Positions 1-52,120 of a DNA stretch of 64,000 nt are shown in pieces (position 1 is the stretch's first letter; each line of letters starts with the position of its first letter). Made by a program: the position numbers and the translations under genes. The notes below the pieces were generated by a model that saw only the letters and a list, made by a program, of their open reading frames with translations, did no database searches and had not been told where the DNA came from. This stretch comes from Candidatus Bathyarchaeota archaeon (GTDB lineage: Archaea > Thermoproteota > Bathyarchaeia > Bathyarchaeales > Bathycorpusculaceae), in assembly GCA_963777155.1 (NCBI GenBank), contig CAVZPM010000036.1, positions 1-64,000 of the forward strand. Reading direction: 5' to 3'.

Positions 1-1827
1 GTAATCTTGCATTCCTAACGCGTGTAACTTGGCTTTTGTGGGTACGCCTTCAACGTTCCAACCGCGAGCTTGATAATAGTCGTCAAGCATAAGGTCAAGT
101 TCGTCTTGGGTTACAACGGCGCCTTTTACTGGTCCGTCATCGGTGATTGGTTGATTCATGACTTTCCAGGGCAACGTGTCGTCTTTTCTGCCAAGTCCTT
201 CTCGGGTGTTGATGAGTTTAGCAAGTGTGTTGATTCGTTCGCCGGCAACTTTTAGTTCGTCTGCAGTTATCGCCTCGCCCGTGACTAGACTGTAGAGTTT
301 AGCCATATCAGGGAGTTCTTTGTAGAGTGTGCCTTTGGCGTTCTTGCAGATGATAAGCGAATCGATCAGGGCATAGACGTCTTCTGCGTCTTTGACTAGT
401 TTGCCTCTGCCTTTTTCTGCTTTCAACCTGTTAACGTCGCCTTTCAAATCGAAGGTGTAAGCGCCGCTTCTGTTTTGGTCTGCGCCCCTGAAGGACACCG
501 CTGAACCTAAAGCAGCTGTTTTTAGGCATCGCAGGTCATATCCTGTGACTTCTAAGCCTTTGATTTGCATAGCAAGTTTCATGGAGTCCTTGCCGATTTT
601 TTCGGCTGCAATCTTTACTCCGTCAGCGAGCATTTCGCCGATTCCTTCGCGTTTCCCGATTTTTTCGATTAGTTGTATTAGTGCTTCTGCGTTTCCGAAG
701 TGAGCGTCTAATCCGCCGAGCTCTTCGTGGGTGAGGATGCCTTTTTCGTGGCAGTCCATTACGAAACTGACTGTTACGCCGACGCTTTGTGCGTCAAGAC
801 CGTAGTAGTTGCAGAGTTCTGCAGCTTTGATTATTGCGTCTAGTTTGTCTACGCCGCAGTTGGGTCCCAACGCCCATAGGTTGTCATATTCCATACGTGC
901 CAAAGTACCTTTGTAAGGTCCTTCGCGTATGAGGGCTTCGTGCTCGCAGCGCATGGCGCATGAGTTGCAAGCGATGATTTTTGTTATGTAGCGTTCGTTG
1001 AGTACTTCGGCGCTGACTTTTTGAGCATTTTCAAAATGGGAGTTGTTGAAGTTGCGTGTGGGTAAACAGGTTAGGTTATTTTGGGTCATGAGGTTTTCGG
1101 TTGTTCCAAGGGTTCGATATTTCTGGGCTGCTGGACCTTTCATGCGTTCATGGAACTCCTTGACCATCTCTATGAATTCTTCAGGTTTAGCGACCATTAT
1201 ATCGCGGGTTCCGCGGACAGCGATAGCTTTTAGGTTCTTGCTTCCCATAACTGCGCCAAGCCCAGTTCGTCCGGCTGCACGGGTTTTCTCGTTTATTATA
1301 CAGGCAATTTTTGATTGCTTTTCACCTGCTAAACCGATAGATGCTACGCGGATGTAGTAGTCGCCTATTTCAGCTTTTATAGCGTCTTCAGTTTCGAAGG
1401 GTGATTTACCCCAAATGTTTGAAGCATCAAGCAGTTGGACTGTATCGTCGTCAATCCAGATGTAAACGGGCTTTTCAGCCTTACCTGTTAAAATTACAGC
1501 GTCATATCCTGCCCTTTTCATTTCAGCTCCAAAGGTGCCGTGGCTTACTGCTTCTCCGACACCGTTTGTTTCTGGTGACTTAGAAATGAATGCGTGACCA
1601 TTTCCGCCAGTCGGAAACATAGTTCCTGAAACTGGACCAACTGCTAGTACAAGTGGGTTTTCTGCGCTAAGCGGGTCAACGCCTGCTTTTGAGTTGGATA
1701 ACCAAAGGTTCATACCAAGGCCGATGCCGCCGATGTATTTTTTGGCGACTTCCTCGCTTAATTTTTCGGTGCGAGTTTTGCCTGTGGTTAAATTAATGTA
1801 TAAGATTGTTCCTGCGTAACCTAGCAA
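1..1827 (-). CDS. aor: Aldehyde:ferredoxin oxidoreductase (tungsten AOR/WOR family), copy 2; stop lies just outside the window
   Basis: Read manually: TTG start MLGYAGTILYINL...YIGGIGLG; C-terminus LDDYYQARGWNVEGVPTKAKLHALG; paralogue of 3282..5196. Absent from the ORF track because it runs off the edge. Confidence 0.9.
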   Translation of the reverse strand, partial: MLGYAGTILYINLTTGKTRTEKLSEEVAKKYIGGIGLGMNLWLSNSKAGVDPLSAENPLVLAVGPVSGTMFPTGGNGHAFISKSPETNGVGEAVSHGTFGAEMKRAGYDAVILTGKAEKPVYIWIDDDTVQLLDASNIWGKSPFETEDAIKAEIGDYYIRVASIGLAGEKQSKIACIINEKTRAAGRTGLGAVMGSKNLKAIAVRGTRDIMVAKPEEFIEMVKEFHERMKGPAAQKYRTLGTTENLMTQNNLTCLPTRNFNNSHFENAQKVSAEVLNERYITKIIACNSCAMRCEHEALIREGPYKGTLARMEYDNLWALGPNCGVDKLDAIIKAAELCNYYGLDAQSVGVTVSFVMDCHEKGILTHEELGGLDAHFGNAEALIQLIEKIGKREGIGEMLADGVKIAAEKIGKDSMKLAMQIKGLEVTGYDLRCLKTAALGSAVSFRGADQNRSGAYTFDLKGDVNRLKAEKGRGKLVKDAEDVYALIDSLIICKNAKGTLYKELPDMAKLYSLVTGEAITADELKVAGERINTLAKLINTREGLGRKDDTLPWKVMNQPITDDGPVKGAVVTQDELDLMLDDYYQARGWNVEGVPTKAKLHALGMQDY

Positions 1828-1872
1828 ACCTTGTTCCTCCAAGAGTTTTGAATATTTAGTGCAGTTGAACAA

Positions 1873-2764: not shown

Positions 2765-3280
2765 TCATTTTGTTTTGTTGGCTTCTGCTTCGGCTGTTTG
2801 GAACAGGTTCTTGACCGCTTTCTGCCGGTACTTCTGTGCTAATGTCTCTGCACTGACAAAGGTCAGGGCTTCTTCTGGGCACCATTTGACGCATTGGGGT
2901 TCTTTGGTTTCGTTGTCGGTGCAGCTATTGCAGGTGAATACTACTTTTTTTTCTGGATGCATGTTCATGGCGCCGAATTGGCATGCGCTGATGCACCATC
3001 CGCAGCCGTTGCATGCGTTTTCGTCAACACGAATTATGCCGCTATCACATTCTTGTTTCAGGGCATCTCTTGGGCAAGCCGCTACGCATGCTGGGTCTTC
3101 ACAGTGCCTGCAGGTAACTGCAAGGTTTACTAATGGACCTATGCGCATAGCGCGTATTCGTGATTTGGTTGGGTTGAAGGTTTTCTCGTTAATCATGCTA
3201 CAGGCGTATTCGCAGACACAGCAGCCGATGCATTTGTCTGGGTCGGCTGTTACGAATTTTCGGTCTTGTGGGCGTACCAT
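2765..3280 (-). CDS. Four-[4Fe-4S]-cluster electron-transfer subunit (DmsB/CooF/AorA-like)
   Basis: Four Cys groups (CIGCCVCEYAC, CRHCEDPACVAAC, CNGCGWCISAC, CNSC...CVKWC). ATG 3280 lies 1 nt after the AOR stop and follows a GGAGG. Confidence 0.9.
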   Translation of the reverse strand: MVRPQDRKFVTADPDKCIGCCVCEYACSMINEKTFNPTKSRIRAMRIGPLVNLAVTCRHCEDPACVAACPRDALKQECDSGIIRVDENACNGCGWCISACQFGAMNMHPEKKVVFTCNSCTDNETKEPQCVKWCPEEALTFVSAETLAQKYRQKAVKNLFQTAEAEANKTK

Positions 3281-3281
3281 T

Positions 3282-5196
3282 TTAGTTTCCTCCTGCAGTT
3301 GCAACTGTTGCTGTTGGTTTGTTTTCTTTAGCCTTTTTCATTGCATCTTCAGCGATGTAGGCTAAGTCGCCTAAACCTAATGAGTTAAGTCTCTCAACGG
3401 TTGGAATGCCATCAGCCGTCCATCCACGTGAAGCGTAGTAATCGTCTAAGCCGATTGCCATTTCCTCGTCGTTAACGCAGACTCCCTTTGGCTGGTCCTT
3501 CGTCTGGTACGGGGAAATTCTTTATCTTGTATGGGACGTCGTCGAATTTGCGTGTGCCTTTGCCTTCTCGTATGTTGAAGAGGCGTGCGAGGTTTTCGAT
3601 TCTGTCGCCGTCTGCCATCATTTCTTCAGGTGTGATTGGGATGCCTGTTGCGAGTGTGTAGTAGTTGGTTAGGTCTTTCCAGCCGTCGTAGTATGTGCCT
3701 CTGCTGAATTTGCAGACGATAAGTGAGTCGATGATGTTATACATGTGGCTCTCGTCGGTAATCATTTTGCCTCTGCCTTTCTCGATTTTGAAGCGGTTCA
3801 CTTTTCCCTTTACGTCAGGTGAGTAAGCTCCATTTCTTAGGTGGCAAGCACCACGGAATGATACTGAAAATCCTAATGCTGCAGTCTTTAGGGTTCTAAG
3901 GTCGTAGCCTGGAAGCTCTAAGCCTTTGATATGACAGGCATATTTGTATGCATCTCCACCGATTAATTCAGCAGCTTTCGCCACACCTTCTGCCAGAATG
4001 TTTCCCAGCCAGCCTTCGCGTTTACCAATCTTGTGAATAATAGCGATTAAGGCTTCAGCGTTGCCGAACTTGAGGTCGATTCCGTCGGTTTGTTCCTTGG
4101 TGATTATCCCATGCTCATAGAGATCCATCGCGAACGCAACAACGACGCCTATTGAGATGCCGTCCATGCCGTACTCGTTAACAATTCGCATTGCTTCGAT
4201 AATTGCGTCTAGGCGGTCAACACCGCAAAGTGGTCCCATACTCCAGAGGCACTCGAACTCCAATCGTGAAGTTGAACCTTTGTATGGTCCTTCGGGAACA
4301 ACGCCGATGTGGTCGCAACGCATACCGCAAGTTGCACATCCCACAATTTTCTTGACATAATGCTCGTTAAAGTATTCGCCGCTTACTTTGTTGGCGCCTT
4401 CAAAAGTGGCATTTGTCCAGTTCCTTGTTGCCAAGGCTGAAAGCGAGTTTAGAACCAAAACGTTTTCGGGTGTGCCTAAGGTTTTGTATTTCTTGGTTGA
4501 CGGACCCTTCATGCGTTCATGGATAAGTTTAACAAATTCCATGAATCCTTTAAGGTCTGCTACGTTGACATCTTTTGTGCCTCGTACAGCGACTGCCTTG
4601 AGGTTTTTGGAACCCATGACTCCGCCCATACCACTTCTTCCAATAGCACGAAACTCATCGTTTATTATAGCTGCAAACCTACAAAGTTTCTCGCCTGCTT
4701 CACCAATCGCTGAAACACGGATGTAAAAGTCACCGAGTTCATCTCGGATTCTGTCATCAGTTTCTTTAACGGTTGCATTTTTGAGGTATTCAGCATTTCG
4801 GATTTCAACTTTGTCATCGTCAATCCAAAGGTAAGATAGTTTAGGTGCTTTGCCTTTGATTACAACAGCATCGTAACCTGCACGTTTCAGGTCAGGTCCG
4901 AAGAAGCCGTGGGCTTCGGCATTACCGATACCGCCGGTGGCGGGAGATTTGGACACGACGGCGTAGCTGTTGCCACCTGTTGGACCCATGGTGCCGCTAA
5001 GTGGACCAGTTAAGTAAATAATCGGGTTATCTGGGTCATATGGGTCAGTGCCCGGTTTTGAATTGTCAAACAATAAGCGGATACCTAAACCTATTCCGCC
5101 GATGTATTCTTTAGCCATCTGCTCTGATAATGGCTCGGTTCTTGTTTCTCCAGTTGTGAGGTTAACATGTAAAATTTTTCCTGCATAAGCAAACAT
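3282..5196 (-). CDS. aor: Aldehyde:ferredoxin oxidoreductase, copy 1 (frameshift near 3480)
   Basis: MFAYAGKILHVNL, GRSGMGGVMGSKNLKAV, CATCGMRC, RGACH. The conserved tail GLDDYYASRGWTADGIPT continues in another frame to a stop at 3282. Confidence 0.9.
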
Positions 5197-5241
5197 GCTT
5201 TTTTCCCCTCAAGTCTCGTTAGTTAGAAGGCATTTGAAAAC

Positions 5242-23590: not shown

Positions 23591-24143
23591 TTGGTTGTTC
23601 TCCCTGGGGTTTTTGGATTTTTTCGATGAATTTTACGCCTTTGAGGGTTTTTTTGACATTCTCAGGGTTACCTTTTGGCAGGGGTGGGAGCCCTTGAGAT
23701 TCACGTTTCTTTATCCTTAACTCTGGAATCTTGTAAGCGTAACCTGATTCAAGAAGGCTTGAGGCTTGGTCTTTGAAAACTTGTGGGAAGCAGCCTTTTT
23801 CTGCGGCTAAATTGCGGAAAACTCGTATGACAGCTGCTACTTCAACGTCTTGTGGACAGCGGTCGGTGCATGTGAAGCATGCTGCACAAAGCCAGAGTGT
23901 GTCGCTTTTTAGTACTCGGTCTTTTAAGCCGAGTTGAGCCATGTGTATAAGAGTTCGTGGGCGGTAACTGTCGCTGTATCTTGCAACTGGGCAATCTGAA
24001 GTGCATGTTCCGCACTGGAAACATTTCAGGATCTTTTCGCTTCCATGAATCTTTTGAAGTTCATACTTGAATTTAGGGTCAAGTTCGGAAGCTTTTATTG
24101 GCTGTTCCCTGTTTTGGCTTGGGGTTGATGCTGCCTCAGTCAT
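23580..24143 (-). CDS. hdrC: Heterodisulfide reductase subunit C
   Basis: CFQCGTCTSDCP, WLCAACFTCTDRCPQ. Confidence 0.92.
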   Translation of the reverse strand: MTEAASTPSQNREQPIKASELDPKFKYELQKIHGSEKILKCFQCGTCTSDCPVARYSDSYRPRTLIHMAQLGLKDRVLKSDTLWLCAACFTCTDRCPQDVEVAAVIRVFRNLAAEKGCFPQVFKDQASSLLESGYAYKIPELRIKKRESQGLPPLPKGNPENVKKTLKGVKFIEKIQKPQGEQPSGQ

Positions 24144-39156: not shown

Positions 39157-41982
39157 CTAAGCCGGTGTGGCTTCTCGTGGTTCCCGAACGACTTTTTTGC
39201 CTTGAGAAACCGAGATGTCCTGCAACTGTTTTTCCTGTTTTGTTTGTGGTGGTTCAGGGAGCTTTTGTTGTATGCAGCGAAAGTCAATGTCTTCTTCTTT
39301 CAGGTTGAGTTCGGCTTTGACGGTGCCATCATTTAAGTATTCAATCTTGAAGCCCATCTTCTTTGACAAGCTTAAGGCACGGTAGTTGTCCTGCAGGATG
39401 ATCGAGTGGACGCTTTCCATGCCCCTTTCCTTTGCGATGTCAAGCACATAATCGACCATTTTTGTGCCTAACCCTAAGCCTTGCCAATAATCGCTAACAA
39501 GGAAAGCGATTTCACCGCTTTTCTCATCAGATTCGATGCTTAAACGGGTTACGCCAAGGATTCTTCTTTTACCGTTTTCAACGATTTCGGCGACTATAGC
39601 AATTTCACGATCATAGTCAATGTTGCAATAGCGGACTCGGACTTCATGTGGTGTATCTTTCAACATCTGGAAGAAACGATACCGTATAGATTCTTCTGAG
39701 AGGCTTTGGAACATTTCAAGCCATAGTGGTTCATCTTCAGGTTTTATGGGGCGAAGTAATACTTCTTGTCCATTTTTGAGCAGCCAGAGTATTTCGTATT
39801 TTTTGGGGTATGGACTTATGACCATGTGTTCATGGGGTTCAAATTTCTTGCAGACGTTGTCTTTGTTGATAACTATGCGGGCGTCAAGGATTGTTGCGTC
39901 TTTCTCGCTGACAAGTAGGGGGTTTATGTCTATTTCTTTTATCTGTGGGAAATCAACTAGCAGTTGTGAGAACATCAGTACGGTTTCGTCAAGTTTTTTA
40001 AGGTCTACTGGCGGTGCGTTTCTCCAGCCTTTGAGTAGACGATAGACTTTGGTTTCTTCCATAATTCGGTGTATTAAGGTTGTGTTTAACGGGGGCAGAC
40101 CAATCGAGGTGTCTTTGAAGAGCTCCACGCCTACACCACCGCTACCGAAGAGGATAACGGGACCAAACACGGGGTCGGTTTTTCCGCCGATGATTAGTTC
40201 ATAGCCCTTCTTCTCAATCATAGGTTGAACGGTGACGCCGATTATTTGGGCATTCGGGTTGTAGGCTGTTGCTCTCTGGATCAATAGTTCGAAGGCGCTT
40301 CGGACTTCGTCCGGGGAGTTAACGTTTAGGATTACTCCGCCTGCATCGCTTTTATGAACGATCTGCGGTGACAGAATCTTGAGCACCACTGGGAAACCCA
40401 TTTCCTGCGCGAATGCCACCGCCTCGTCAACGTTGTTTGCGACTGAGGTTTTTACGACTGGGAAATTGTAGTATTTAAGTATCTTTTTAGCTTCGTCTTC
40501 GGTAAGGATTTCGCGATCTTCAAACGCAGCGTTTCGCAGGATTGCCATTATTGGGCGTTTAGGTGGGGCAGCATCAACGGGCAATTCTTCTGGGGTTTCG
40601 TATAGAAGATCTATGTTACGTTGGTAATCGTACATGTACATGTATGTTCTAACGGCTTGTTCGGGTGTTGAGTACGTGGGGATATTGTTGGCGTTTAGGA
40701 TGCTGTTTGCCTCCTGAACGGCACCATAACCCATAAACGAGGTGAGGATTGTCTTGTTCTGGAAGGTCTTATTGCGAACAAGTTCAACAATATTTTTTGA
40801 GATTTCAACTGATTCTGAAACAGCCTGTTGAGTGAAAACAATCAAAATACCATCAATGTTTTCATCATTTAAGCAGGCTTCAACCGCTGCTTTGTACCTT
40901 TCAGACTTGGCATCTCCAAGGACATCGATGGGGTTGCCGTGGCTCCAAAACGGAGGTAGAACAGCGTTAAGAGAATCCATCGTTTTCTGGCTTAGCTTAG
41001 CCAATTTGCCGCCCTGAGCAATCAATGCGTCAGTCGCCATGACGCCGGGTCCACCAGCGTTGGTGATTATGGCTAATCTTGGTCCCTTTGGTAACGGTTG
41101 GGTTCCTAGAACCTCCGCTGCATTAAACAAGTCAGCTATCTCGTTGACACGGACAATACCCGCGCGTTTGAATGCCGCATCGTAGATTCCATCTTCGCCA
41201 GATAGTGAACCCGTGTGAGAAGCCGCGGCTTTGGCACTCTCAGAAAACTTGCCCGACTTTACAACGATTATGGGTTTTGTTCTTGCGAAGTGTCTTGCAG
41301 CACTCATAAATTTGCGGGCTTCAGTTATGCCCTCCACATACATTAGGATACTTTTGGTTTTGGGGTCTGATCCAAAATAATCGATCAAGTCGCCAAAATC
41401 TACATCAATCATGGAGCCTACAGAGACAAAGTTGCTGAATCCAATATTTTCATGTAGAGCCCAGTCAAGGATTGCAGAACCCAAAGCGCCACTCTGTGAC
41501 AGAAAAGCTACGTTGCCGGCTTTGGGCATTTTATCTAGGAAGGTAGCATTCAAATTGTTTCGGGGACGAATTATTCCGATGCAGTTGGGACCAATTATTC
41601 GGATGCCGTATTTCTTGGCGATTTCTAGAGTTTTTTCTTCAAGCGCTTTGCCCGCTGGCCCAGTTTCTTTGAAGCCAGCTGAAACTATTATTGCTCCTTT
41701 GACTTTTCCTTTTCCGCATTCCTCCATCACGTCTGGAACGGTTTTGGCTGGAGTAGCGATTATGGCTAAGTCAACAGGCTCAGGAACCTGATCCACTGTC
41801 GGGTAGGTTTTAACTCCTAGAATTTCTGGTTTACGAATGTTAACAAAGTAAACTTTTCCAGTGTAACCCATTTGGGTAAAATTTTTAACTATGGCGTAAC
41901 CGACAGACCCTTCAACGTCGCTGGCTCCAATGATGGCTACATTTTGAGGATTGAAGATCTTGTCAAGGTTTGTGGTGACCAT
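39157..41982 (-). CDS. ADP-forming acyl-CoA synthetase (alpha+beta) fused to a C-terminal GNAT domain (Pat/Pka-like)
   Basis: IIGPNCIG, SQSGA, AASHTGSL, TNAGGPG, VHKSDAGGV, DINPL; GNAT part LRPIKPED...WQGLGLGT. Confidence 0.92.
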   Translation of the reverse strand: MVTTNLDKIFNPQNVAIIGASDVEGSVGYAIVKNFTQMGYTGKVYFVNIRKPEILGVKTYPTVDQVPEPVDLAIIATPAKTVPDVMEECGKGKVKGAIIVSAGFKETGPAGKALEEKTLEIAKKYGIRIIGPNCIGIIRPRNNLNATFLDKMPKAGNVAFLSQSGALGSAILDWALHENIGFSNFVSVGSMIDVDFGDLIDYFGSDPKTKSILMYVEGITEARKFMSAARHFARTKPIIVVKSGKFSESAKAAASHTGSLSGEDGIYDAAFKRAGIVRVNEIADLFNAAEVLGTQPLPKGPRLAIITNAGGPGVMATDALIAQGGKLAKLSQKTMDSLNAVLPPFWSHGNPIDVLGDAKSERYKAAVEACLNDENIDGILIVFTQQAVSESVEISKNIVELVRNKTFQNKTILTSFMGYGAVQEANSILNANNIPTYSTPEQAVRTYMYMYDYQRNIDLLYETPEELPVDAAPPKRPIMAILRNAAFEDREILTEDEAKKILKYYNFPVVKTSVANNVDEAVAFAQEMGFPVVLKILSPQIVHKSDAGGVILNVNSPDEVRSAFELLIQRATAYNPNAQIIGVTVQPMIEKKGYELIIGGKTDPVFGPVILFGSGGVGVELFKDTSIGLPPLNTTLIHRIMEETKVYRLLKGWRNAPPVDLKKLDETVLMFSQLLVDFPQIKEIDINPLLVSEKDATILDARIVINKDNVCKKFEPHEHMVISPYPKKYEILWLLKNGQEVLLRPIKPEDEPLWLEMFQSLSEESIRYRFFQMLKDTPHEVRVRYCNIDYDREIAIVAEIVENGKRRILGVTRLSIESDEKSGEIAFLVSDYWQGLGLGTKMVDYVLDIAKERGMESVHSIILQDNYRALSLSKKMGFKIEYLNDGTVKAELNLKEEDIDFRCIQQKLPEPPQTKQEKQLQDISVSQGKKVVREPREATPA

Positions 41983-42684: not shown

Positions 42685-43422
42685 TTGCTAAAATGCACCG
42701 AGGTGTCCAAGCGTTTTGGAGGACTTCAAGCATTAGGAAACGTCGACTTCATGGTCAACGATGGTGAGATAGCAGGGCTTGTTGGACCCAACGGCTCAGG
42801 TAAATCAACTCTCCTTAACCTCATTAGCGGCGTTTACAAACCCGACTCAGGAAGAATCATATTTCTAGACCAGGATATCACGAAACTCCCGCCATATAAG
42901 ATCTGTGCATTAGGCATAACCAAAACAGCTCAAACCGTTCAGTCTTTCCCTGAAATGACCGCTGCCGAAAATGTTCTGACAAGCGTGCTGTTTAATGAGA
43001 AAAAGTATAGCGGCAAAACCAACGCACTTCTACGGGCTCAGGAACTTTTGGGGTTTGTAGGACTAAGCAAAGAAAAGTTTGATTTGCCAGCAAAAAAGCT
43101 TAACGTTGTTGAGTTGCGGCGTATCCAGCTTGCCAAAGCCCTAGCAACCAACCCGAAGTTGTTGCTGTTGGACGAGTTGCTAACTGGGTTGACGCCCAAA
43201 GAATCAGATGAAGCAATAGAACTTATCAAAACAATCAACAAACAGGGCGTAACAATATTAATCGTCGAGCATGTCATGAGGGTCATTATGGGTTTGTGCA
43301 GTCGCGTAATAGTATTAAATCACGGCGAAAAAATCTGCGAAGGTGACCCCAAAACGGTGGTTTGCAACGAGAATGTTGTGAAAGTTTACTTGGGTAAACG
43401 TTTCACTTTTGGAGAGGAGTAA
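42685..43422 (+). CDS. livG: Branched-chain amino acid-type ABC transporter ATPase
   Basis: KRFGGLQA, GPNGSGKST, LLLDE, VEHVM. Confidence 0.9.
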   Translation: MLKCTEVSKRFGGLQALGNVDFMVNDGEIAGLVGPNGSGKSTLLNLISGVYKPDSGRIIFLDQDITKLPPYKICALGITKTAQTVQSFPEMTAAENVLTSVLFNEKKYSGKTNALLRAQELLGFVGLSKEKFDLPAKKLNVVELRRIQLAKALATNPKLLLLDELLTGLTPKESDEAIELIKTINKQGVTILIVEHVMRVIMGLCSRVIVLNHGEKICEGDPKTVVCNENVVKVYLGKRFTFGEE

Positions 43423-43425
43423 TAG

Positions 43426-44130
43426 ATGCTTGAAATCGCGAATTTGTCCGCAGCTTATGGCATGGTTCAGATACTCTACAATGTAGATTTCAAGGTGGAA
43501 AAAGGTGAAATTGTGAGCATCATCGGACCAAACGGAGCAGGAAAAACCACTTTGGCAAAAACAATCATGGGCTTTATGCATCCAAAAACTGGCTCAATTA
43601 AGTTTAAGGGTGAAAATATCGAGAAATTGCCCACTTACGAGATAGTCAAGAAAGGCTTGACGATGATTCCTGAAGGCAGGGAAATCTTTCCCCGAATGAC
43701 CGTCGATGAAAACCTTCAACTCGGCGCCTACAACATTGCCGACAAAGCAAAGATAAAGGAAACCAAAGAGAAAGCCTTCGATATTTTTCCAGTCTTAAAA
43801 AAGAAAGAGAAAGTGTTGGCTCAAACTCTAAGCGGTGGAGAGCAGCAAATGCTGGTTATTTGCAGAAGCCTAATGTCTAACCCTCAATTGCTAATCCTCG
43901 ATGAACCTTCGCTGGGATTGGCGCCAATTATCGTGGAGAAAGTTCTCGATACTGTGCGTACAATTAACGAGGAAGGAGTAACGGTGCTCTTGGTAGAGCA
44001 GAACATTCATGATAGCCTAACCGTAGCTGACAGAGGCTACGTTTTGGAGGAGGGCAAGATAATCTTAGAAGGGAAGAGTAGGGAACTTTTATCTAATAGT
44101 CACATAAAAGAAGTGTATCTAGGCCTTTAA
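43426..44130 (+). CDS. livF: Branched-chain amino acid-type ABC transporter ATPase
   Basis: GPNGAGKTT, LSGGEQQML, LDEPSLGLAP, LVEQN. Confidence 0.92.
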   Translation: MLEIANLSAAYGMVQILYNVDFKVEKGEIVSIIGPNGAGKTTLAKTIMGFMHPKTGSIKFKGENIEKLPTYEIVKKGLTMIPEGREIFPRMTVDENLQLGAYNIADKAKIKETKEKAFDIFPVLKKKEKVLAQTLSGGEQQMLVICRSLMSNPQLLILDEPSLGLAPIIVEKVLDTVRTINEEGVTVLLVEQNIHDSLTVADRGYVLEEGKIILEGKSRELLSNSHIKEVYLGL

Positions 44131-44149: not shown

Positions 44150-45469
44150 TTGGCAGACGGCAAATACTGGAACGAAAAAATAGAAACCATGCCCACACAG
44201 GAAATAAAGAAGCTCCAACTCCAAAAACTCAAGCAACAAGTCAAACACTGCTATGAACACAGCAGCTTTTACAAGAAAAAATTTGACAGCGTCGGCCTTA
44301 AACCCCTCGACATAAAGGCTCTAGACGACTTGCAAAAGATTCCCTTCACCATAAAGAGCGATTTACGTGACAATTATCCCTTCGGTATGGTTGCCGCTAA
44401 ATCAGATGAGATTGTTGAGATTCATGCATCAAGTGGAACCACAGGAAACCCAATAATCGGAGCCTACACCCAGAGCGACATGGACATGTGGCAGGAACTC
44501 ATGGCCCGCAGTATCTACACCACGGGCGGAAGACGCCAAGACGTCATCCACATTGCCTACGGCTATGGCTTGTTCACTGGCGGTTTAGGTTTTCATTACG
44601 GCGCTCAGAAAGTTGGCGCAAAAATCGTTCCGGCAAGCGGCGGAATGACCCAGCGGCAAATTAAACTTATGAAAGACTTAGACGTCACCATTTTAGCCTG
44701 TACACCCAGTTTCGCCGTTTACCTTGCCGAGACGATGGCTCAAGAAGGCGTTGTTCCGCAAAAGGACCTTAAACTTAGATTGGGCATGTTCGGAGCTGAA
44801 CCATGGTCGCACAAAATACGTGAAAGAATCGAAAAGGAAATGGGCATAGAAGCTTTTGACGTTTACGGCTTAACCGAGCTTTGCGGTCCAGGAGTCTCCA
44901 TAGAATGCTCCGAGCATAATGGCCTGCACATTTGGGAAGACCACTTTATTGTAGAAACAATTGACCCTGACACGGGCGAAGTGTTGCCTCAAGGAGAAGA
45001 GGGCGAACTGGTTTTTACAGCGCTTAGCAAAACAGGTTTGCCAATGCTACGCTATAGGACAAGAGACATCTCAAAAATCAATGCAGAAAAATGTGCATGT
45101 GGAAGAACACATGCCAGAATGGACAGGATAACAGGAAGATCAGACGACATGCTAATCATCCGAGGAGTAAATGTGTTCCCATCGCAAATAGAATACGCCG
45201 TTATGTGCTTCGCTGAACTCGCAACTCAATACCTAATCGTCCTTGATAGGCCAGGCGCATTAGACACTTTCGTGGTTAAGGTTGAGTTGTCTGAGAAGGC
45301 CTCCAAAGATGCGACCCTCGATAAAGCTGTCTTGATAAATGAAATCCAAAAGAGAATCCACATAGTGACAGGCATATCTGCTGATGTCCAGATCGTTAAG
45401 CCAGGTGAGCTTCCAAGGACAGAGGGCAAAGCAAAAAGGGTATTGGACTTGCGTAAAGGCAAAATGTAA
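44150..45469 (+). CDS. paaK: Phenylacetate-CoA ligase (AMP-forming)
   Basis: HASSGTTG, YGYGLFTGGLG.HYG, GAEPWS, YGLTE, RYRTRD, GRSDDMLIIRGVNVFP, EGKAKRV. Confidence 0.93.
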   Translation: MADGKYWNEKIETMPTQEIKKLQLQKLKQQVKHCYEHSSFYKKKFDSVGLKPLDIKALDDLQKIPFTIKSDLRDNYPFGMVAAKSDEIVEIHASSGTTGNPIIGAYTQSDMDMWQELMARSIYTTGGRRQDVIHIAYGYGLFTGGLGFHYGAQKVGAKIVPASGGMTQRQIKLMKDLDVTILACTPSFAVYLAETMAQEGVVPQKDLKLRLGMFGAEPWSHKIRERIEKEMGIEAFDVYGLTELCGPGVSIECSEHNGLHIWEDHFIVETIDPDTGEVLPQGEEGELVFTALSKTGLPMLRYRTRDISKINAEKCACGRTHARMDRITGRSDDMLIIRGVNVFPSQIEYAVMCFAELATQYLIVLDRPGALDTFVVKVELSEKASKDATLDKAVLINEIQKRIHIVTGISADVQIVKPGELPRTEGKAKRVLDLRKGKM

Positions 45470-45480
45470 AGGACAAACTT

Positions 45481-47670
45481 ATGACTTCCAAGATTGCACA
45501 AGATAAACCGGGCACCTTTGTCTTGCTTAACGGTGATGAAGCAGTTGCACGAGGCGCAGTAGAAGCTACCGTCAAAGTTGCTGCTTCATACCCCGGAACA
45601 CCTGCAACCGAAATCTTGGAAACACTCGCTGAAGTTGCGAAAGATTTTGGAATCTATGCCGAATGGAGCATTAACGAGATAGTAGCTGCGGAAGTTGCGG
45701 CGGGCGCATCAATGACTGGAGTGCGTTCGATTGTATCTATGAAACATGTAGGGCTTAATGTCGCTGCAGACGCCGCCATGACTTTAGCCTACACTGGAGT
45801 TGAAGGAGGCATGGTAATCGCTGTCTGCGACGACCCAGCACTACATAGTAGCCAAAACGAACAGGACACCCGCTTCTTTGCAGTTCATTCCAAGTTGCCA
45901 CTACTAGACGCTGGTAATCCTCAAGAAGCCCACGACATGGCAAAAGAAGCTTTCGAAATCAGCGAAAAACTCCACCTTCCTATAATTTTGCGCCTGACCA
46001 CTAGAGTCGCCCACGGAAAATCAAGGGTAAAACTTGGGACTTTCCAGAAACTTAACCGTCGAGCCAACTTTGGGAAAGACAGCTCAAAATGGGTAATGGT
46101 TCCTTCCAACGCAATACGACAGCATCGTGTTTTGGAAGGCAGGCTAGCGGAGGCAAAGGGGCTAGCTGAAAACTCAAGGTTCAACACCATAGAAGATAAC
46201 GGAAGCGAAATAGGCATCGTTGGAAGCGGAGTCGGCTATTATTATGCAAGATCAATTCTCGATTCAGCCAAGTTTTCTTGGCTAAAGCTGGGTTTCGTTC
46301 ATCCTTTCCCAGCGGAAATCGTTAGGGTATTTGCTTCTAAAGTTAAAAAAATAATAGTTATCGAAGAATTAAGACCCTATATAGAGGAGAACATTCAGAG
46401 GTTAGGTTTTCAAGTAATTGGCAAAAAAATGTTAGGGCTCGAAGAAATCGGCGAATTCACACCTGATAACATCCGATTAGCCTTTGCAAAGTTGGAATTG
46501 GCAGCTCAAGCGGAAAAACAGGAAGCCATAGATTTACCTCCACGTCCACCAGCGCTTTGCCCCGGATGCCCTCATAGAGCATTTTACTACGCCCTAAACA
46601 TGACCAACCAATACGTGAACTGTGACAACGAGAAATGTGTTGGCTGCGACATCTGCGAATATGCATGCTCTTTTGAGAAGGAAAAAATCTTCAATCCACT
46701 CAAGTCGCGGATTCGCTCAATAAGAATTAACCAAACTTTCAATACAGCTGTCACCTGCAAAGCCTGCTTGAACGCTCCATGCATCAATGCATGCCCCGAA
46801 AATGCTATAAGCCAAACAGAAAAAGGAACGATCGTTATAGATGAACAAAAATGCAAAGGCTGCGACTGGTGCATAGATGCTTGTCAATACGGAGCGTTAA
46901 CACTCCACCCCAGCAGCCACAAAGCAATTGTCTGCGACCTATGCGGGGGCGAACCAAAATGCATTCCTGCCTGCCCAGAGAGCGCATTAAGTTTGACGGG
47001 AAAATCCAGCGACAAAATCGTAACAGGCGACATCGGTTGCTACACTCTCGGTGTTTTACCTCCTGTCGGTGCAGTCCAAACTTGCCTTTGCATGGGAGCA
47101 GGAATTTCTCAAGCAGCTGGAATGATTCATGCAGGAGTTAAAGAAAAAGTGTTCGCAGTCATCGGTGACTCAACTTTTTTCCATGCAGGAATGCCGGGAC
47201 TACTAAACATAGTGTATAACAAAGCAAATGTCTGCGTTATCGTAATGGATAATAGCGTAGTTGCTATGACTGGTCATCAACCAACACCTGGCTCAGGAAA
47301 AACTGCCATGGGATTCGATGCAAAAATCATCGATATAAAAGACATCGCAAAAGCTGTCGGAATCGAAAAAGTAACCAGAGTTGATCCTTATGATCTTAAA
47401 GCTACAAGCACCGCCATACATGAAGCAATCAACTACCAAGGCCCATCAGTAATCATTTCCCAGCGAGCATGCCCACTCTTAGTTGAGAAAGGCAAACAAA
47501 GGGAAATCAAAGAAGAATGCAACGCCTGCGGCGTTTGCGTAAAAGCGTTCGGTTGCCCAGCCATAAGCTTAGTAAACGAACGGGCTGAAATCGACCCAAC
47601 CCTCTGCAACGGCTGCGGAGTCTGCGAAACCGTCTGCCCCTTCGACGCGATAAGGAGAAAAGAGATATGA
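45481..47670 (+). CDS. iorA: Indolepyruvate:ferredoxin oxidoreductase alpha subunit with an internal four-cluster Fe-S insertion
   Basis: YPGTP, MKHVGLNVAAD, SSQNEQD, LCPGCPHR, GDIGCY, IGDSTFFH, C-terminal 2x[4Fe-4S]; extra ~137 aa domain. Confidence 0.93.
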   Translation: MTSKIAQDKPGTFVLLNGDEAVARGAVEATVKVAASYPGTPATEILETLAEVAKDFGIYAEWSINEIVAAEVAAGASMTGVRSIVSMKHVGLNVAADAAMTLAYTGVEGGMVIAVCDDPALHSSQNEQDTRFFAVHSKLPLLDAGNPQEAHDMAKEAFEISEKLHLPIILRLTTRVAHGKSRVKLGTFQKLNRRANFGKDSSKWVMVPSNAIRQHRVLEGRLAEAKGLAENSRFNTIEDNGSEIGIVGSGVGYYYARSILDSAKFSWLKLGFVHPFPAEIVRVFASKVKKIIVIEELRPYIEENIQRLGFQVIGKKMLGLEEIGEFTPDNIRLAFAKLELAAQAEKQEAIDLPPRPPALCPGCPHRAFYYALNMTNQYVNCDNEKCVGCDICEYACSFEKEKIFNPLKSRIRSIRINQTFNTAVTCKACLNAPCINACPENAISQTEKGTIVIDEQKCKGCDWCIDACQYGALTLHPSSHKAIVCDLCGGEPKCIPACPESALSLTGKSSDKIVTGDIGCYTLGVLPPVGAVQTCLCMGAGISQAAGMIHAGVKEKVFAVIGDSTFFHAGMPGLLNIVYNKANVCVIVMDNSVVAMTGHQPTPGSGKTAMGFDAKIIDIKDIAKAVGIEKVTRVDPYDLKATSTAIHEAINYQGPSVIISQRACPLLVEKGKQREIKEECNACGVCVKAFGCPAISLVNERAEIDPTLCNGCGVCETVCPFDAIRRKEI

Positions 47671-48254
47671 ATCTTGATATAGTTTTTAGTGGCGTGGGTG
47701 GACAAGGAGTCGTAGTTCTTAGTGACATATATTGTGAGGCTGCAATGCTTGAGGGTTTCGATGTTGCAAAAGCTGAGATTCACGGCATGGCTCAGCGTGG
47801 AGGCTCAATAGTTGCATACACAAGAATCGGCACTAAAGTTGAGTCACCCCTAATTGAGACGGGAAAAGCCGATGTCGTCGTTGGTTTTGAGATTTTGGAA
47901 ACAGCAAGAGCGCTGACTATGCTCAAAAAGAATGGCTCAGTGATTGTAAATATGAAGTATATTCCACCTAATTGTGTAGCTTCAGGCGTTAAACCTAAAA
48001 AGATAGAGGAGCTAATGATGCTGCTTCGAGCTAAGGCGCTGGTTCATGAAGTGGATGGCGTTGGCATTGCACAGAAACTGGGTAATATGCTGGTTGTTAA
48101 TACTATCCTCTTAGGTGCGCTTTCGGCGCTTCCAGAGATTCCTGTGAAGGTGGAGTCTTTCCAGAAGGCTATGGCAGGCAGGCTTAAAGAAAAATACATC
48201 AATTTGAACCTTAAAGCCTTTCAGTTAGGCAGGGAAACCGTGATAAAGAGTTAA
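47667..48254 (+). CDS. iorB: Indolepyruvate:ferredoxin oxidoreductase beta subunit
   Basis: GVGGQG, EIHGMAQRGGS, NTILLGA, NLKAFQLG. Confidence 0.93.
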   Translation: MNLDIVFSGVGGQGVVVLSDIYCEAAMLEGFDVAKAEIHGMAQRGGSIVAYTRIGTKVESPLIETGKADVVVGFEILETARALTMLKKNGSVIVNMKYIPPNCVASGVKPKKIEELMMLLRAKALVHEVDGVGIAQKLGNMLVVNTILLGALSALPEIPVKVESFQKAMAGRLKEKYINLNLKAFQLGRETVIKS

Positions 48255-48307: not shown

Positions 48308-49681
48308 GTGCAAAAGAAAATACTCGCTATATTAGTCGTTGTAATAATTGCTGTTGCAGCAGTAGCAGCCATAGAATTATACCCCAAAGCAGCATCACCT
48401 GACGCAAGAGACATAAAGATTGGACTAGTAGCACCAATATCAGGATCGCCGATTGGGCAAGACATGGAACGAGCCGCTGAACTAGCCGTTAAGGAAATCA
48501 ACGATGCAGGCGGAGTCTATGTTTCAAGCTGGAACACCAAAGTAAACATAACCCTTGTACTCGCTGACACAATTAATGATGCCCCAGCCAACGCAGTAAC
48601 CCCAGTTACCCGCGCAGTAGAAACAGACAACGTCGACATGCTCATAGGCGGATACGGCAGCGCAGGAACACTAGCCAACGAGATAGTAGCCATCGAAAAC
48701 AGAGTGCCATACATCATCTCTGGAGCTTCTAACCAACTCGTAACAAGGAGAGGACCACAAGGTAACTATGGCGGCTTTGGACCAAATGGTGCAAACAGTG
48801 TAAGCGACGCAGAAGGCATGAGCTACATCTTCCATTATTGCACAACAACTTACCACTACAGCAAAACAGTCGTTGACTTCTTCGCATCCGAAATGAAACC
48901 CATGGTTGCAGAGAATCGTAACTTCAGTCTTGCATTGCTCTACCGCAATGACGCTTTCGGAACAGGAGTTGCAGCGGCAACTAAATTCTGGATACAGAAC
49001 GAAAGCCTCCCAATCAATATCGTTGCAGACAGAAGCTATGACCCCACAACCACAAACTACCAAACTGACCTAACAGCGGTCGCCGCAGCACATCCAGATG
49101 CAGTTTTCATCGCTGACAACCCCGATAAAACACCACTCATAATAAAACAAGGATGGGACGACGTTGGCTTAAAGACTGTCTATATAGCAGTTGAAAACAA
49201 CCAAGATGAAGCCTTCTACGACCTTCTGGGAAGCGTAGGTGACGGACAGCTTCTCGAGTCAAAACTTAATCCCTTCATGACACCTTCGTACTCTACAGTT
49301 GTAGAAAACTATGCTAAGGCTTTCGACGTAGCCTATCCACATGTTATGCCGGGAATGATGGGTGCCGATACATATGATGCAGTATACATCGCTAAAGACG
49401 CAATCCAAAGAGCAGGATCAGTTGACAAAGCAGCAGTTCGCACAGCAATCGAGAGCACAAACATCGACCAAATGCTTATCCAAACAAAGACAGGCAAAAT
49501 ACAGTTTAGCACAGGGGTCAACTACCACGAAATCGACCCAGTAACCTTCATTGAGCAACTTAAATGGGATGCATCAACCAGTCATCTGACATCACAAATA
49601 GTTTGGTCACCACCAAGCAGTACCAACCTCAAACAAGCAGACTTCGTCTTACCAACAGGCTACCTATCTGGAGATCACTAG
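48308..49681 (+). CDS. livK: ABC transporter substrate-binding protein (LivJ/K family), N-terminal membrane anchor
   Basis: IKIGLVAPISG, AVKEINDAGG, IGGYGS, YDAVY..KDAIQRAGS. Confidence 0.85.
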   Translation: MQKKILAILVVVIIAVAAVAAIELYPKAASPDARDIKIGLVAPISGSPIGQDMERAAELAVKEINDAGGVYVSSWNTKVNITLVLADTINDAPANAVTPVTRAVETDNVDMLIGGYGSAGTLANEIVAIENRVPYIISGASNQLVTRRGPQGNYGGFGPNGANSVSDAEGMSYIFHYCTTTYHYSKTVVDFFASEMKPMVAENRNFSLALLYRNDAFGTGVAAATKFWIQNESLPINIVADRSYDPTTTNYQTDLTAVAAAHPDAVFIADNPDKTPLIIKQGWDDVGLKTVYIAVENNQDEAFYDLLGSVGDGQLLESKLNPFMTPSYSTVVENYAKAFDVAYPHVMPGMMGADTYDAVYIAKDAIQRAGSVDKAAVRTAIESTNIDQMLIQTKTGKIQFSTGVNYHEIDPVTFIEQLKWDASTSHLTSQIVWSPPSSTNLKQADFVLPTGYLSGDH

Positions 49682-49786
49682 ATAAAAACCAACCTCCCTC
49701 CCTTTTCTTTTATTTCTCGCATGTTTTAAATAGTTAACAAGAGAAGTTATGTCAATCGCCAAAATAAAGAAAGGATGCGATAGACC

Positions 49787-50665
49787 ATGGACTTAACGGC
49801 ACCAACAATACTCCTAACGTTAGTTTGGGGTGTTGCCATCGGTTGTGTATACATTCTTCTGGCAACGGGTCTAAATATAATCTTTGGCGTAATGAAACTC
49901 GTTAATTTTGCCCATGGTCAGTTGCTCATGATAAGTGCGTTCTTAACATGGACAATATCTGTTTCATTGGGGGTAAACGCTTATCTCGCCATAATAATAT
50001 CTATGATTATTGTTGCCCTATTAGGGGTGGTAGTTGAAAGATTCACCTTTCGCAGGGTTCTGGGCACGGACAAACTTAACGAAATATTTGTGAGCTTGGG
50101 TCTAATCTACATTTTTGAAAACGTAGCTATGCTCATTTGGGGAGCCAGTTCAAAGCAAGTGACTAGCCCTTTTTATGGTATGAGCGTTAGTTTACCGGGC
50201 TTCTCAATAACATATGACCGAGTCATAGCTGTGTTCGTAGTGGTCGCTGCACTTGCAACTTTTGGCTTGCTTCTTTGGAAAACGAAAATTGGGTTAGCCA
50301 TGCGAGCAACCAGCCAAAGAAACACAACAGCTACGCTAATGGGGATAAACGTCCAGAAAGTTTACATGTTTACCTTCGCAATTGGAGCCGCGTTAGCAGC
50401 GGTCGCTGGAGGATTGTATGGCGTAATTTACCCCTTTGACTATCAGGTTGGGGCTCTACCTACAATCATTGCTTTCGCCATCATAATAATGGGCGGTTTA
50501 GGAAGCATAAAAGGCGCTATAATCGGCGGCTTACTCTACGGCATAACAGAGCAGATGGCAACCCTGTTTTTGGGAGGTACATGGGGAAGTGCAGTTGCTT
50601 TCACCTTGCTAATTGTTGTACTTATAATTAGACCGAATGGAATATTCGGGGAGAAGGGAGAATAA
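49787..50665 (+). CDS. livH: ABC transporter permease
   Basis: GLNIIFGVMKLVNFAHG, GLAMRA, GGLGS. Confidence 0.92.
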   Translation: MDLTAPTILLTLVWGVAIGCVYILLATGLNIIFGVMKLVNFAHGQLLMISAFLTWTISVSLGVNAYLAIIISMIIVALLGVVVERFTFRRVLGTDKLNEIFVSLGLIYIFENVAMLIWGASSKQVTSPFYGMSVSLPGFSITYDRVIAVFVVVAALATFGLLLWKTKIGLAMRATSQRNTTATLMGINVQKVYMFTFAIGAALAAVAGGLYGVIYPFDYQVGALPTIIAFAIIIMGGLGSIKGAIIGGLLYGITEQMATLFLGGTWGSAVAFTLLIVVLIIRPNGIFGEKGE

Positions 50666-50666
50666 A

Positions 50667-51761
50667 ATGCAAATCAAACAAACACTAAGCAGGTTCTTGC
50701 ATTCTAGGAGCTTCCTCTTCATCGTTGCCTTCTTTGTCATCATGGCTTTTATTCCATTACTTTTTCGAGATAATTTTTTCCTAACAGTCATGACACTAAT
50801 AACTATCTTTTCAATCTACGCCGCAAGCTGGAATTTCTTGGCAAATTCAGGGCAGGGTTCCCTAGGACACGCTGTATTCTTAGGCGTAGGCGGCTTTGCC
50901 TCAGCAATAATTGGCAGTTCAATATCGAAAGCGACAGTAAATTTTCTTGGCACCACCCAAATGCCGGTGGGCGGTTTATCCGCTACTATCTTAATAGTAG
51001 CGCTTCTGCTAGGCGGACTACTTTCAGCGGGAGTTGGGTTACTGATAGGTTTAGCCTGCATAAGACTGAAGGCATGGTACTTGGCTATGGTAACGTTTGG
51101 TTTTTCAGTGATAGCGGCAACATTGTCAAGTCAATTTGATTCAATCACCCAGGGAATAAACGGATATGCTACGACAACGCTTGTGGCCAAAGGTTACCCA
51201 TTTTACCTTCTGGTTGTTCTCTTCGCTTTGACCTCCATTTCGGTAATGTACTTCATAATGAATTCAAGAATGGGGTTAGCATTCAGAGCAATCCATGGAA
51301 ATGAAACCGAAGCAAAGATGATTGGAGTAAACACCGCAAAATACAAGTTGCTAGCTTTTATCATAAGCACATTCTTCGCCGGGATATCTGGAGGCTTGTA
51401 CGCTTACTTTATCAGACTCATCGACAACTCAATCTTTTCACCAGCAAACTCATTCCTACCGCTAATAATGTCAGTCATCGGAGGCTTAGGAACAGTTCCA
51501 GGACCAATCATCGGATCAATATTCTTGGTCTCAATCCAGCAAATCTCCACATTACCCACTGTTGTTAATTCCCTAAATGGCGCACTTGGGATGTATTTCC
51601 CAAGTGTAAGTAACGTTGGACCACCTTTGAGCCTCCTAGCCATAGGCGTAATACTTATAGTCATCGTGATCTTCGCTCCAAAAGGCTTGATATCACTGCT
51701 CCGCAAAATCTACAAATACCTTATGTCCGAACCAAAAAACAAAGAGACAAAACTCAAATGA
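50667..51761 (+). CDS. livM: ABC transporter permease
   Basis: GQGSLGHA, YLAMVT, GLAFRAI, GGLGT..GP..G. Confidence 0.9.
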   Translation: MQIKQTLSRFLHSRSFLFIVAFFVIMAFIPLLFRDNFFLTVMTLITIFSIYAASWNFLANSGQGSLGHAVFLGVGGFASAIIGSSISKATVNFLGTTQMPVGGLSATILIVALLLGGLLSAGVGLLIGLACIRLKAWYLAMVTFGFSVIAATLSSQFDSITQGINGYATTTLVAKGYPFYLLVVLFALTSISVMYFIMNSRMGLAFRAIHGNETEAKMIGVNTAKYKLLAFIISTFFAGISGGLYAYFIRLIDNSIFSPANSFLPLIMSVIGGLGTVPGPIIGSIFLVSIQQISTLPTVVNSLNGALGMYFPSVSNVGPPLSLLAIGVILIVIVIFAPKGLISLLRKIYKYLMSEPKNKETKLK

Positions 51762-52120
51762 AAGGCACAGATCATTTTGCAGAAGCCTTAGGCATCAATG
51801 TTCTTGAAGCAAAGGACGGTTACGCAAAAGTAACGATGAAGGTTGAAAAGATCCATACAAACGCCTTAGGGTTTACACATGGTGGCGCAATCTTTTCGTT
51901 GGCAGACTACGCGTTTGCTCAGGCATGCAACTTCGGCGACAACGTTGCAGTGGCGGTTCAAGTTAGCATAAACTTTCTTAAGCCCTCAGTAGAAGGCGAC
52001 ACGTTGATCGCAGAGGCAACCCGGGTTTCAGACGGCAAAACAATGGGCTTATACAATGTTATAGTATGCAATCAAAGCAAACAGGTTGCTGTTTTTTCGG
52101 GTTTAGCCTTTAAAAAGTAA
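51758..52120 (+). CDS. paaI: PaaI-family hotdog acyl-CoA thioesterase
   Basis: N..GFTHGGAIFSLADYAFA.ACN. Confidence 0.9.
   Translation: MKGTDHFAEALGINVLEAKDGYAKVTMKVEKIHTNALGFTHGGAIFSLADYAFAQACNFGDNVAVAVQVSINFLKPSVEGDTLIAEATRVSDGKTMGLYNVIVCNQSKQVAVFSGLAFKK

Follow-up and report, generated by a model that had tools for sequence, protein, structure and literature searches.

The 2-oxoacid:ferredoxin oxidoreductases (OFORs) are three-cluster enzymes, the known diversity of which lies in subunit fusion rather than in extra wires added to the catalytic chain. The canonical indolepyruvate:ferredoxin oxidoreductase (IOR), IorAB, exemplified by that of Pyrococcus furiosus and captured by the TIGR03336 and TIGR03334 models, combines a POR_N domain, a thiamine pyrophosphate (TPP) domain, four cysteines of the proximal cluster and a C-terminal 2x[4Fe-4S] domain with an IorB subunit encoded in the adjacent gene. 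All these features are found in the IorA encoded in the window analyzed here, the first 64,000 nucleotides of contig CAVZPM010000036.1 from Candidatus Bathyarchaeota archaeon (GCA_963777155.1), where iorA occupies positions 45481..47670 of the forward strand as an open reading frame (ORF) of 729 amino acids. However, this IorA contains an additional domain of approximately 125 amino acids, with the motifs for four clusters, between the second and the third of the proximal cysteines. This architecture is a new domain combination within two known families.

The inserted domain is homologous to WorS and AorA, the small subunits of tungsten oxidoreductases. The sections of two structural reports that deal with these subunits (PMC12318220, PMC10413684) describe WorS-type proteins as passing electrons from the cluster of the catalytic subunit to a further module. 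The end of the small subunit that holds the first cluster packs on the catalytic subunit (10.8 Å in WorSL and 11.9 Å in AorAB), electrons move from the other half to the next small subunit, a flavoprotein or a bifurcating core, and the C-terminal helix sets the oligomeric state (PMC12318220, PMC10413684). We consider it probable that the insert of IorA, captured once, functions in electron transfer as a four-[4Fe-4S] domain of this type and serves as a built-in wire, or second port, of the IOR.

The polyferredoxin domain inserted in IorA

The assignment of the host protein is straightforward. The IOR_alpha equivalog model TIGR03336 (NCBIfam) matches it with 706.3 bits, passing the cut-off of 650.9, in two stretches that break at residue 375. 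Pfam domains cover residues 25-187 (POR_N, PF01855), 517-658 (TPP_enzyme_C, PF02775) and 676-727 (Fer4), and a Fer4_11/Fer4_7 block lies at residues 423-505, inside the insert. The CPGCPH motif (46558..46575, forward strand, as are all features of iorA; residues 360-365) provides Cys360 and Cys363, the first and second ligands of the proximal cluster; the GDIGCY motif (47026..47043; residues 516-521), at which the TPP-binding domain begins, provides Cys520, the third ligand; and Cys664 (47470..47472) is the candidate for the fourth. The four cysteines are invariant across 135 aligned IorAs, and we presume, by analogy with pyruvate:ferredoxin oxidoreductase (PFOR), that they hold the proximal [4Fe-4S] cluster. 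The canonical 2x[4Fe-4S] ferredoxin domain follows at 47506..47661, with Cys680, 683, 686 and 692, and Cys709, 712, 715 and 719. The start of iorB (47667..48254, forward strand; PF01558, E 3.9e-38) overlaps the stop codon of iorA; the best IorB model scores 192 bits for this gene, under the cut-off of 237. The enzyme appears to remain a 2-oxoacid oxidoreductase of the IorAB type, for which the operon context suggests activity on arylpyruvates. No second IorA was found in this genome, so the single copy must carry whatever IOR function the cell has.

The inserted domain spans residues 375-510 (46603..47010), and its core, absent from an insert-less orthologue, corresponds approximately to residues 379-503. 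Between CPGCPH and GDIGCY, it contains four complete cysteine motifs: motif I, C386-x2-C389-x2-C392-x3-C396 (46636..46668); motif II, C426-x2-C429-x4-C434-x3-C438-P (46756..46794); motif III, C458-x2-C461-x2-C464-x3-C468 (46852..46884); and motif IV, C485-x2-C488-x5-C494-x3-C498-P (46933..46974). An extra cysteine, Cys381 (46621..46623), precedes motif I by five residues; it is invariant in the inserts and is replaced by alanine or valine in the free-standing relatives.

An earlier note on this DNA, made from the nucleotide sequence without database searches, had proposed an in-frame four-cluster domain inside IorA, and the four complete motifs within the 729-codon frame bear this out; the sequence strings quoted there are present in the translations. 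Its measurements of the insert and of the flanking motifs needed correction. The insert, put at about 137 amino acids, comes to about 122-125 when measured against the insert-less orthologue P0121, and the flanking motifs, said to be normally a few residues apart, are in fact farther from each other: the spacing between the second and third ligands, which is 157 residues in this IorA (Cys363 to Cys520), ranges from 22 to 36, with a median of 26, in the 134 of the 150 best representatives for which both motifs were pattern-matched. The C-terminal ferredoxin domain is kept, as had been stated, with all eight of its cysteines, and the proposed total of up to seven clusters (one proximal, four in the insert and two C-terminal) fits the cysteine count. 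Because Cys360, Cys363, Cys520 and Cys664 are invariant and are joined by 16 cysteines of the insert and eight at the C-terminus, the sequence allows seven [4Fe-4S] clusters per alpha subunit, where the canonical enzyme would hold three.

Homology suggests a double-ferredoxin fold for the insert. The AlphaFold2 (AF2) model of the full chain has a mean confidence (pLDDT) of 90.8 and a pTM of 0.87, with most of the core above 90; the isolated insert was modeled with pLDDT 50.5 and pTM 0.35. A Foldseek search with the full model against the PDB retrieved only PFOR, OGOR, OOR and other TPP enzymes, with no IOR and no chain containing such an insert among them.

In sequence, the insert is closely related to a free-standing paralogue of 179 amino acids encoded on the reverse strand near the beginning of the window, downstream of a gene for aldehyde ferredoxin oxidoreductase (AOR), at 2765..3304 (the end of this ORF had previously been placed at 3280); the two are 47% identical over 134 amino acids (BLASTP, E 2e-41). 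Among the PDB sequences, the best match is 9mqx_E (E 7.6e-27), followed by 6x6u_B and 6x1o_B (about 3e-26), and 8c0z_C (E 1e-21) carries the molecule name 'potential subunit of aldehyde oxidoreductase'; HycB3/HycB4, NrfC and others match less strongly, and there is no solved IOR among these matches. We take 6x6u to be the P. furiosus tungsten oxidoreductase WOR5 and 8c0z to be the AOR of Aromatoleum aromaticum. The entry 9MQX figures in the text of the report on WorABCSL (PMC12318220).

Several free-standing paralogues of the insert are encoded in the same genome. The closest one, of 171 amino acids, is 55% identical to the insert, and its start overlaps the stop codon of an AOR gene (contig C35). 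The four best seemingly free-standing matches in a collection of 5.8 billion proteins turned out to be pieces of IorAs that carry the insert; the true free-standing proteins closest to it come from Bathyarchaeia, comprise 161-171 amino acids and are 56-59% identical. Polyferredoxins of this kind are encoded directly downstream of AOR, on the same strand, in all 29 loci with an orthologue of the window's AOR, representing 29 genomes across the order. The description of the domain as AOR-partner type, offered in the earlier note, is therefore well founded, in agreement with the tungsten oxidoreductase small subunits that head the PDB matches. Cys381, Lys481 and Gly507 are invariants specific to the insert. 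The N-terminal extension of the free small subunits is missing from it, and the chain re-enters IorA at Gly507. Also missing is a C-terminal tail of about 25 amino acids that is conserved in the Bathyarchaeia AOR small subunits inspected (five from the set of 28).

Conservation, distribution and origin of the insert

An in-frame domain of this size in an unexpected place could result from an error of assembly or gene calling in which iorA was wrongly fused to a polyferredoxin gene. No evidence in favor of this explanation was found, and we assign a negligible probability to it. At least 58 genome assemblies share the in-frame architecture, as do 120 protein clusters drawn from several sources, and contigs assembled from metagenomes of other samples span both junctions. 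The 5' junction is bridged by the independent contig X4 (46283-46751), and the 3' junction by X1 (46632-47204), X4 (46825-47167) and the RNA-library contig X23 (46913-47074, with zero differences); no joint that skips the insert was detected among the metagenome contigs from other samples. Contigs from RNA libraries covered 17 and 10 of the 30 bins into which the gene was divided, the uncovered bins being uninformative. Parts of the sequence are also represented in 22 DNA sequencing runs from wetland, soil and freshwater-sediment metagenomes, which contain fractions of 0.29-0.53 of the sampled words. With many independent assemblies, both junctions bridged and no joint lacking the insert, the artefact explanation was rejected.

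In the genomes sampled, the distribution of the insert is confined to a part of Bathyarchaeia. Of 401 genomes sampled from this class, at least 60 have a contiguous match through it: 58 of these match over residues 1 to about 728 with 65-86% identity, and in the other two, the match runs through the insert and is ended by a stop codon or the contig end. All 60 carriers belong to one order, namely to family f1 (genera g1, g3, g6, g7, g8, g13 and g23) and to genus g42 of family f5, and the same two families alone account for the 18 of 401 genomes with an insert match in a phylum-wide sample. A search with residues 300-560 yielded, among the matches listed, 120 clusters with at least 75% identity and full coverage; 103 of these represent proteins of 729 or 730 amino acids, and the names given are those of Bathyarchaeota or Bathyarchaeia, with one labeled Binatia. 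Beyond this group, the 149 other representatives among the best 150 in a set of 1.84 billion proteins show no match through the insert: the alignments stop at about residue 373 and resume at about residue 510, in a set clustered at 50% identity, so that an insert-less representative may hide carriers. The top match, P0121 (607 amino acids, 70% identity), is cleanly devoid of the insert. In the ESM Atlas, the IorA of the window matched its own cluster, of 730 amino acids, and ordinary IorA clusters. Separately, rank 5 in that search was taken by a 701-amino-acid IorA cluster with 126 members, mostly from Thermodesulfobacteriota, which is longer than usual.

Within the carriers, the cysteines are strictly conserved. 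All 16 cysteines of the four motifs and Cys381 are invariant in 120 of 120 close homologues, and the same 17 are invariant in all 32 sequences of a set that extends to the most divergent copies (65-71% identity); taken over at least 150 sequences, they are invariant down to 38% pairwise identity within the insert. No broken motif and no partial deletion was seen in any insert-bearing copy examined, and this pattern implies strong purifying selection on cluster binding. The mean column conservation of the insert is 0.85, compared with 0.85-0.93 in the other regions of IorA.

In a tree that combined 12 of the 32 diverse inserts with 58 free-standing proteins (every second match) and three paralogues from the same genome, the inserts formed one clade (SH-aLRT 99); by this phylogeny, the insert has a single origin. 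The sister orthologues that lack the insert come from two genomes of genus g6, G394 (whose protein is identical to P0121) and G346; they comprise 605-607 amino acids and are 64-68% identical to the IorA of the window (BLASTP). Both share with it the neighboring genes for a PaaK-like ligase, IorB and a thioesterase, G394 alone also has the ABC-transporter genes, and no polyferredoxin gene lies near the insert-less iorA of either genome. Because these sister orthologues occupy the same operon without the insert, the insert is an accessory module. A quick IQ-TREE analysis of IorA with the insert columns dropped (32 insert-bearing sequences drawn from the at least 58 carriers, three insert-less ones and 14 canonical outgroups) placed the insert-less trio as sister to all 32 carriers, with SH-aLRT support of 93 and 83. 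This topology needs one change and is compatible with gain and loss alike. The linker of the G394 protein retains residues that resemble the C-terminal end of the insert, which hints at secondary deletion.

Operon context and the role of the insert

The gene immediately upstream of iorA (44150..45469, forward strand) encodes an AMP-forming, PaaK-like phenylacetate-CoA ligase (TIGR02155, 575 bits, below the cut-off of 646) and is a conserved neighbor. It is preceded by two genes for ATPases of a Liv-type ABC transporter (42685..44130, forward strand), and iorB is followed, on the same strand, by genes for a Peripla_BP_6 substrate-binding protein and two permeases of the same transporter (48308..51761) and for a PaaI-like hotdog thioesterase (51758..52120; TIGR02286, 114 bits, cut-off 118.9). 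The order of the genes for the PaaK-like ligase, IorA, IorB and the substrate-binding protein is kept in all five insert-bearing loci examined; these five end inside the binding-protein gene, so the permeases together with the thioesterase were seen in the window and in the insert-less G394 only. Activation of arylacetates followed by reductive carboxylation is a route of methanogens and rumen bacteria. The combination of the PaaK-like ligase and the importer suggests that, here too, imported arylacetates would be activated and then reductively carboxylated.

Under the reading that we favor, in which the insert is a built-in wire, the domain would stem from a single capture out of the family of AOR small-subunit genes present in the lineage itself and would have been inserted in frame into a surface loop between the second and third cysteine ligands of the proximal cluster. 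The four extra clusters would branch from, or extend, the chain that leads from TPP through the proximal and medial clusters to the distal one, providing a second port or an electron buffer for a redox partner beside or instead of free ferredoxin. The benefit would be greatest in the reductive direction, the conversion of arylacetyl-CoA and CO2 to arylpyruvate, a direction that we propose because the AMP-forming ligase adjoins iorA. The earlier note had spoken of a docking and wire module that plugs the IOR into an AOR. The wire part of this claim follows from the homology to WorS and AorA and the invariance of all cluster cysteines; the AOR part is a possibility that one complex prediction supports, with no tie in gene order or co-occurrence.

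Several observations weigh against a built-in wire. The insert reaches a pLDDT of only 51-83 in the full-chain AF2 model; the coverage by RNA libraries is thin and may reflect DNA carry-over; and no gene for a partner is linked to the iorA operon, no homologue of AOR or of the polyferredoxin having been found in the seven iorA loci examined (BLASTP with the proteins of the window). Chorismate synthase and prephenate dehydratase are encoded in the genome; with genes for de novo synthesis of aromatic amino acids present, an anabolic role of the IOR is not required, and their presence leaves the direction of the IOR undecided. The existence of the insert-less G394 and G346 orthologues in the same operon indicates that an IOR works without the insert, and the inserts diverge more quickly than do the small subunits of AOR (mean pairwise identity of 0.62 vs 0.76), even though the inserts compared span the narrower taxonomic range. 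The last two observations, along with the hint from the G394 linker that the domain can be lost, would also be expected if the insert were tolerated baggage or a structural or protective domain, stabilizing the protein or shielding the proximal cluster from oxygen, with no electron transfer to a partner. The 17 cysteines that remain invariant in at least 150 sequences, with not one damaged or partly deleted copy, speak against this explanation, and we regard it as very unlikely.

The homology of the insert raises the possibility that AOR itself is the partner. In the broadest form of this proposal, which we put forward tentatively, the captured small subunit would recruit an AOR catalytic subunit, either directly or by stacking of small subunits, and the aldehyde/acid couple, with its very low potential, would drive the reductive carboxylation of imported arylacetates to arylpyruvates, or the reverse, with no need for free ferredoxin. 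Such an IOR-AOR supercomplex, if it exists, would be a new way to couple two ferredoxin-level reactions. In its direct form, which we find somewhat more doubtful, the insert would still act as WorS and bind the AOR catalytic (WorL) subunit, yielding a hard-wired supercomplex in which electrons would be exchanged directly between the oxidation of aldehydes and the synthesis or oxidation of 2-oxoacids, bypassing free ferredoxin. Prediction of a complex between IorA residues 356-729 (with the 135-sequence alignment) and the 624-amino-acid AOR of the window gave an ipSAE of 0.86, compared with 0.00 for the best of three controls; of the complexes with a solved structure, 58 of 80 attain this mark, as do 2 of 110 mismatched pairs, counts that are approximate here, custom alignments having been used. 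The runs agree in at least 89% of the predicted contacts, and the partner is modeled with pLDDT of at least 90. The predicted interface brings the cluster-cysteine region of AOR (297-314) against residues 387-391 (in motif I), 394-395, 398, 401-408 (a loop), 415-421, 477 and 497-500 (at motif IV) of the insert, the canonical mode of contact between the large and small subunits. At the predicted interface positions, the insert is identical to the closest AOR small subunit in 19 of 24 cases, vs 36 of 84 at the other non-cysteine positions (Fisher p 0.002); measured against the consensus of a group of proteins of about 205 amino acids, the member of which in this genome is not located beside an AOR, the counts are 13 of 24 and 43 of 84. 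The loop 401-430 has the lowest pLDDT of the monomer model, a weak hint that is consistent with an unpacked loop.

Other evidence speaks against direct binding. The WorSL and AorAB complexes have already been solved, and the passing prediction may reflect memory; close cousins of true partners often pass as well (10 of 12 in the calibration of the tool); and the predicted complex comprised neither residues 1-355 of IorA nor IorB nor the dimer mate, and therefore does not cover clashes with them. Trp497, found in 96% of 28 AOR small subunits, is present in 25% of 32 inserts and is replaced by alanine in the window; Val387 is relaxed in the same manner, and Leu407 and Lys402 also vary more among the inserts than among the small subunits of AOR. 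The conserved tail of the small subunits is missing, both AOR genes at the start of the window have a small subunit of their own, and iorA is separated from the AOR genes by about 40 kb. Relaxation in the insert clade is not specific to the predicted AOR face (entropy difference of 0.59 vs 0.52 bits, permutation p 0.38), which argues neither way.

The variant in which small subunits stack would make the insert a docking platform: the C-terminal tail of an AOR small subunit would lie on the distal half of the insert, and the IOR would cap or join an AOR nanowire. The relevant parts of the reports on WorABCSL and AorABC describe the C-terminal helix of one small subunit as binding the next, with deletion of the helix abolishing the filaments, and, for P. 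furiosus WOR5, a helix that folds back on its own subunit (PMC12318220, PMC10413684). The tail of about 25 amino acids kept by the Bathyarchaeia small subunits would suit such an arrangement, whereas the fold-back of the WOR5 helix and the lack of co-occurrence, given that genomes throughout the order have the pair of AOR and small-subunit genes whether or not they carry the insert, make it very unlikely in our view.

The AOR genes of this genome deserve brief description. The first one (3472..5196, reverse strand) encodes 574 amino acids and lies upstream of the gene for the 179-amino-acid polyferredoxin; the last approximately 40 positions of the AFOR_C model are encoded in another frame, at 3372-3503, and the extended match (3372-5238, reverse strand) contains a TGA codon. 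This break could be a frameshift, a pseudogene or an assembly error, and several AOR orthologues in related genomes also have in-frame stops. The second gene (1..1872, reverse strand) runs off the window, and its own small subunit, the 171-amino-acid paralogue, is encoded on the overlapping contig C35, where positions 72199-75375 repeat positions 1-3300 of the window with about 98% protein identity, through contig overlap or strain heterogeneity. A small protein of the MoaD family is encoded between the two AOR/small-subunit pairs (1987-2343, forward strand; TIGR01687, 35.9 bits, cut-off 49.5) and is probably tied to the synthesis of the tungstopterin cofactor. A third AOR, of 607 amino acids (G000:C1:188219-192316), has no small-subunit gene beside it and adjoins genes for a class I/II aminotransferase and for a class IV aminotransferase that is split into two overlapping ORFs, which suggests a role in the metabolism of aldehydes derived from amino acids. 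This AOR was considered as the dedicated partner of the insert and rejected: close orthologues were found in 13 of the 40 genomes from the genus, but 53 of the 71 genomes from family f22 also encode them, and this family has no contiguous insert-type match among the matches listed.

Two other loci of the window were noted. Genes for the large and small subunits of a [NiFe]-hydrogenase are located at 20260-24143 (reverse strand), together with genes for HdrB-like (CCG) and HdrC-like (Fer4) proteins; this cluster may supply or take up low-potential electrons. Positions 39157-41982 (reverse strand) encode a 941-amino-acid protein in which domains resembling ADP-forming acyl-CoA synthetases are followed by a C-terminal GNAT acetyltransferase domain, a layout that we take to be the architecture of Pat-type protein acetyltransferases.

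In these IorAs, a complete four-cluster 'nanowire' unit that belongs to a tungsten enzyme has come to lie beside the proximal cluster, and strict selection has maintained it in a clade of Bathyarchaeia represented in wetland, soil and freshwater-sediment metagenomes. The WorS module is shown by this to be portable between unrelated catalytic cores, a property that would be of relevance for engineered wired redox enzymes, and the orthologues with and without the insert constitute a natural pair for testing the role of the wire. The insert may mark a dedicated supply of low-potential electrons for the synthesis of arylpyruvates or a physical coupling of IOR with AOR, and either outcome would alter the models of amino-acid and aromatic-acid metabolism in these uncultured archaea.

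Comparison with known polyferredoxin systems

The insert shares homology with WorS, AorA and the small subunit of WOR5 (9mqx_E, 8c0z_C and 6x6u_B) over the whole double-ferredoxin unit, including the 16 cysteines. It differs from them in being an internal domain of a TPP enzyme rather than a separate polypeptide encoded beside an AOR gene, and in lacking the N-terminal extension and the C-terminal helix or tail.

A search of the full-text literature, supplementary files being outside its scope, revealed no account of a polyferredoxin domain located inside IorA. Where a 2026 review of PFOR diversity touches on polyferredoxins, it mentions them only as separate subunits (PMC13768988). The nearest functional parallels are likewise encoded apart from the catalytic chain. 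PorE and PorF, encoded in the por operon of Methanococcus maripaludis, are presented in the pertinent parts of two papers as polyferredoxins dedicated to an OFOR and thought to feed its anabolic direction (PMC4902934, PMC13768988). Unlike the insert, these are products of separate genes and serve a pyruvate enzyme. PadI, the beta subunit of the NADH-dependent phenylglyoxylate dehydrogenase (PadEFGHI), is among the best NCBIfam matches of the insert: the N-terminal approximately 140 of the 443 positions of the PadI model match it with E 3e-21 (76 bits, compared with a cut-off of 700). The likeness extends to the enzyme, an aryl 2-oxoacid oxidoreductase of the OFOR type with a polyferredoxin of the same superfamily; however, PadI is a separate subunit in which the polyferredoxin is joined to a flavin/NAD domain, and IorA has no such flavoprotein domain. 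By analogy, the insert may be to the IOR, in cis, what PorE/PorF or the polyferredoxin portion of PadI are to their enzymes.

Insertion of a ferredoxin unit into a loop of a redox enzyme has parallels in different hosts, namely HdrA and the sulfite reductases. The inserts in those enzymes are two-cluster ferredoxins, in contrast to the four-cluster WorS unit found in this IorA.

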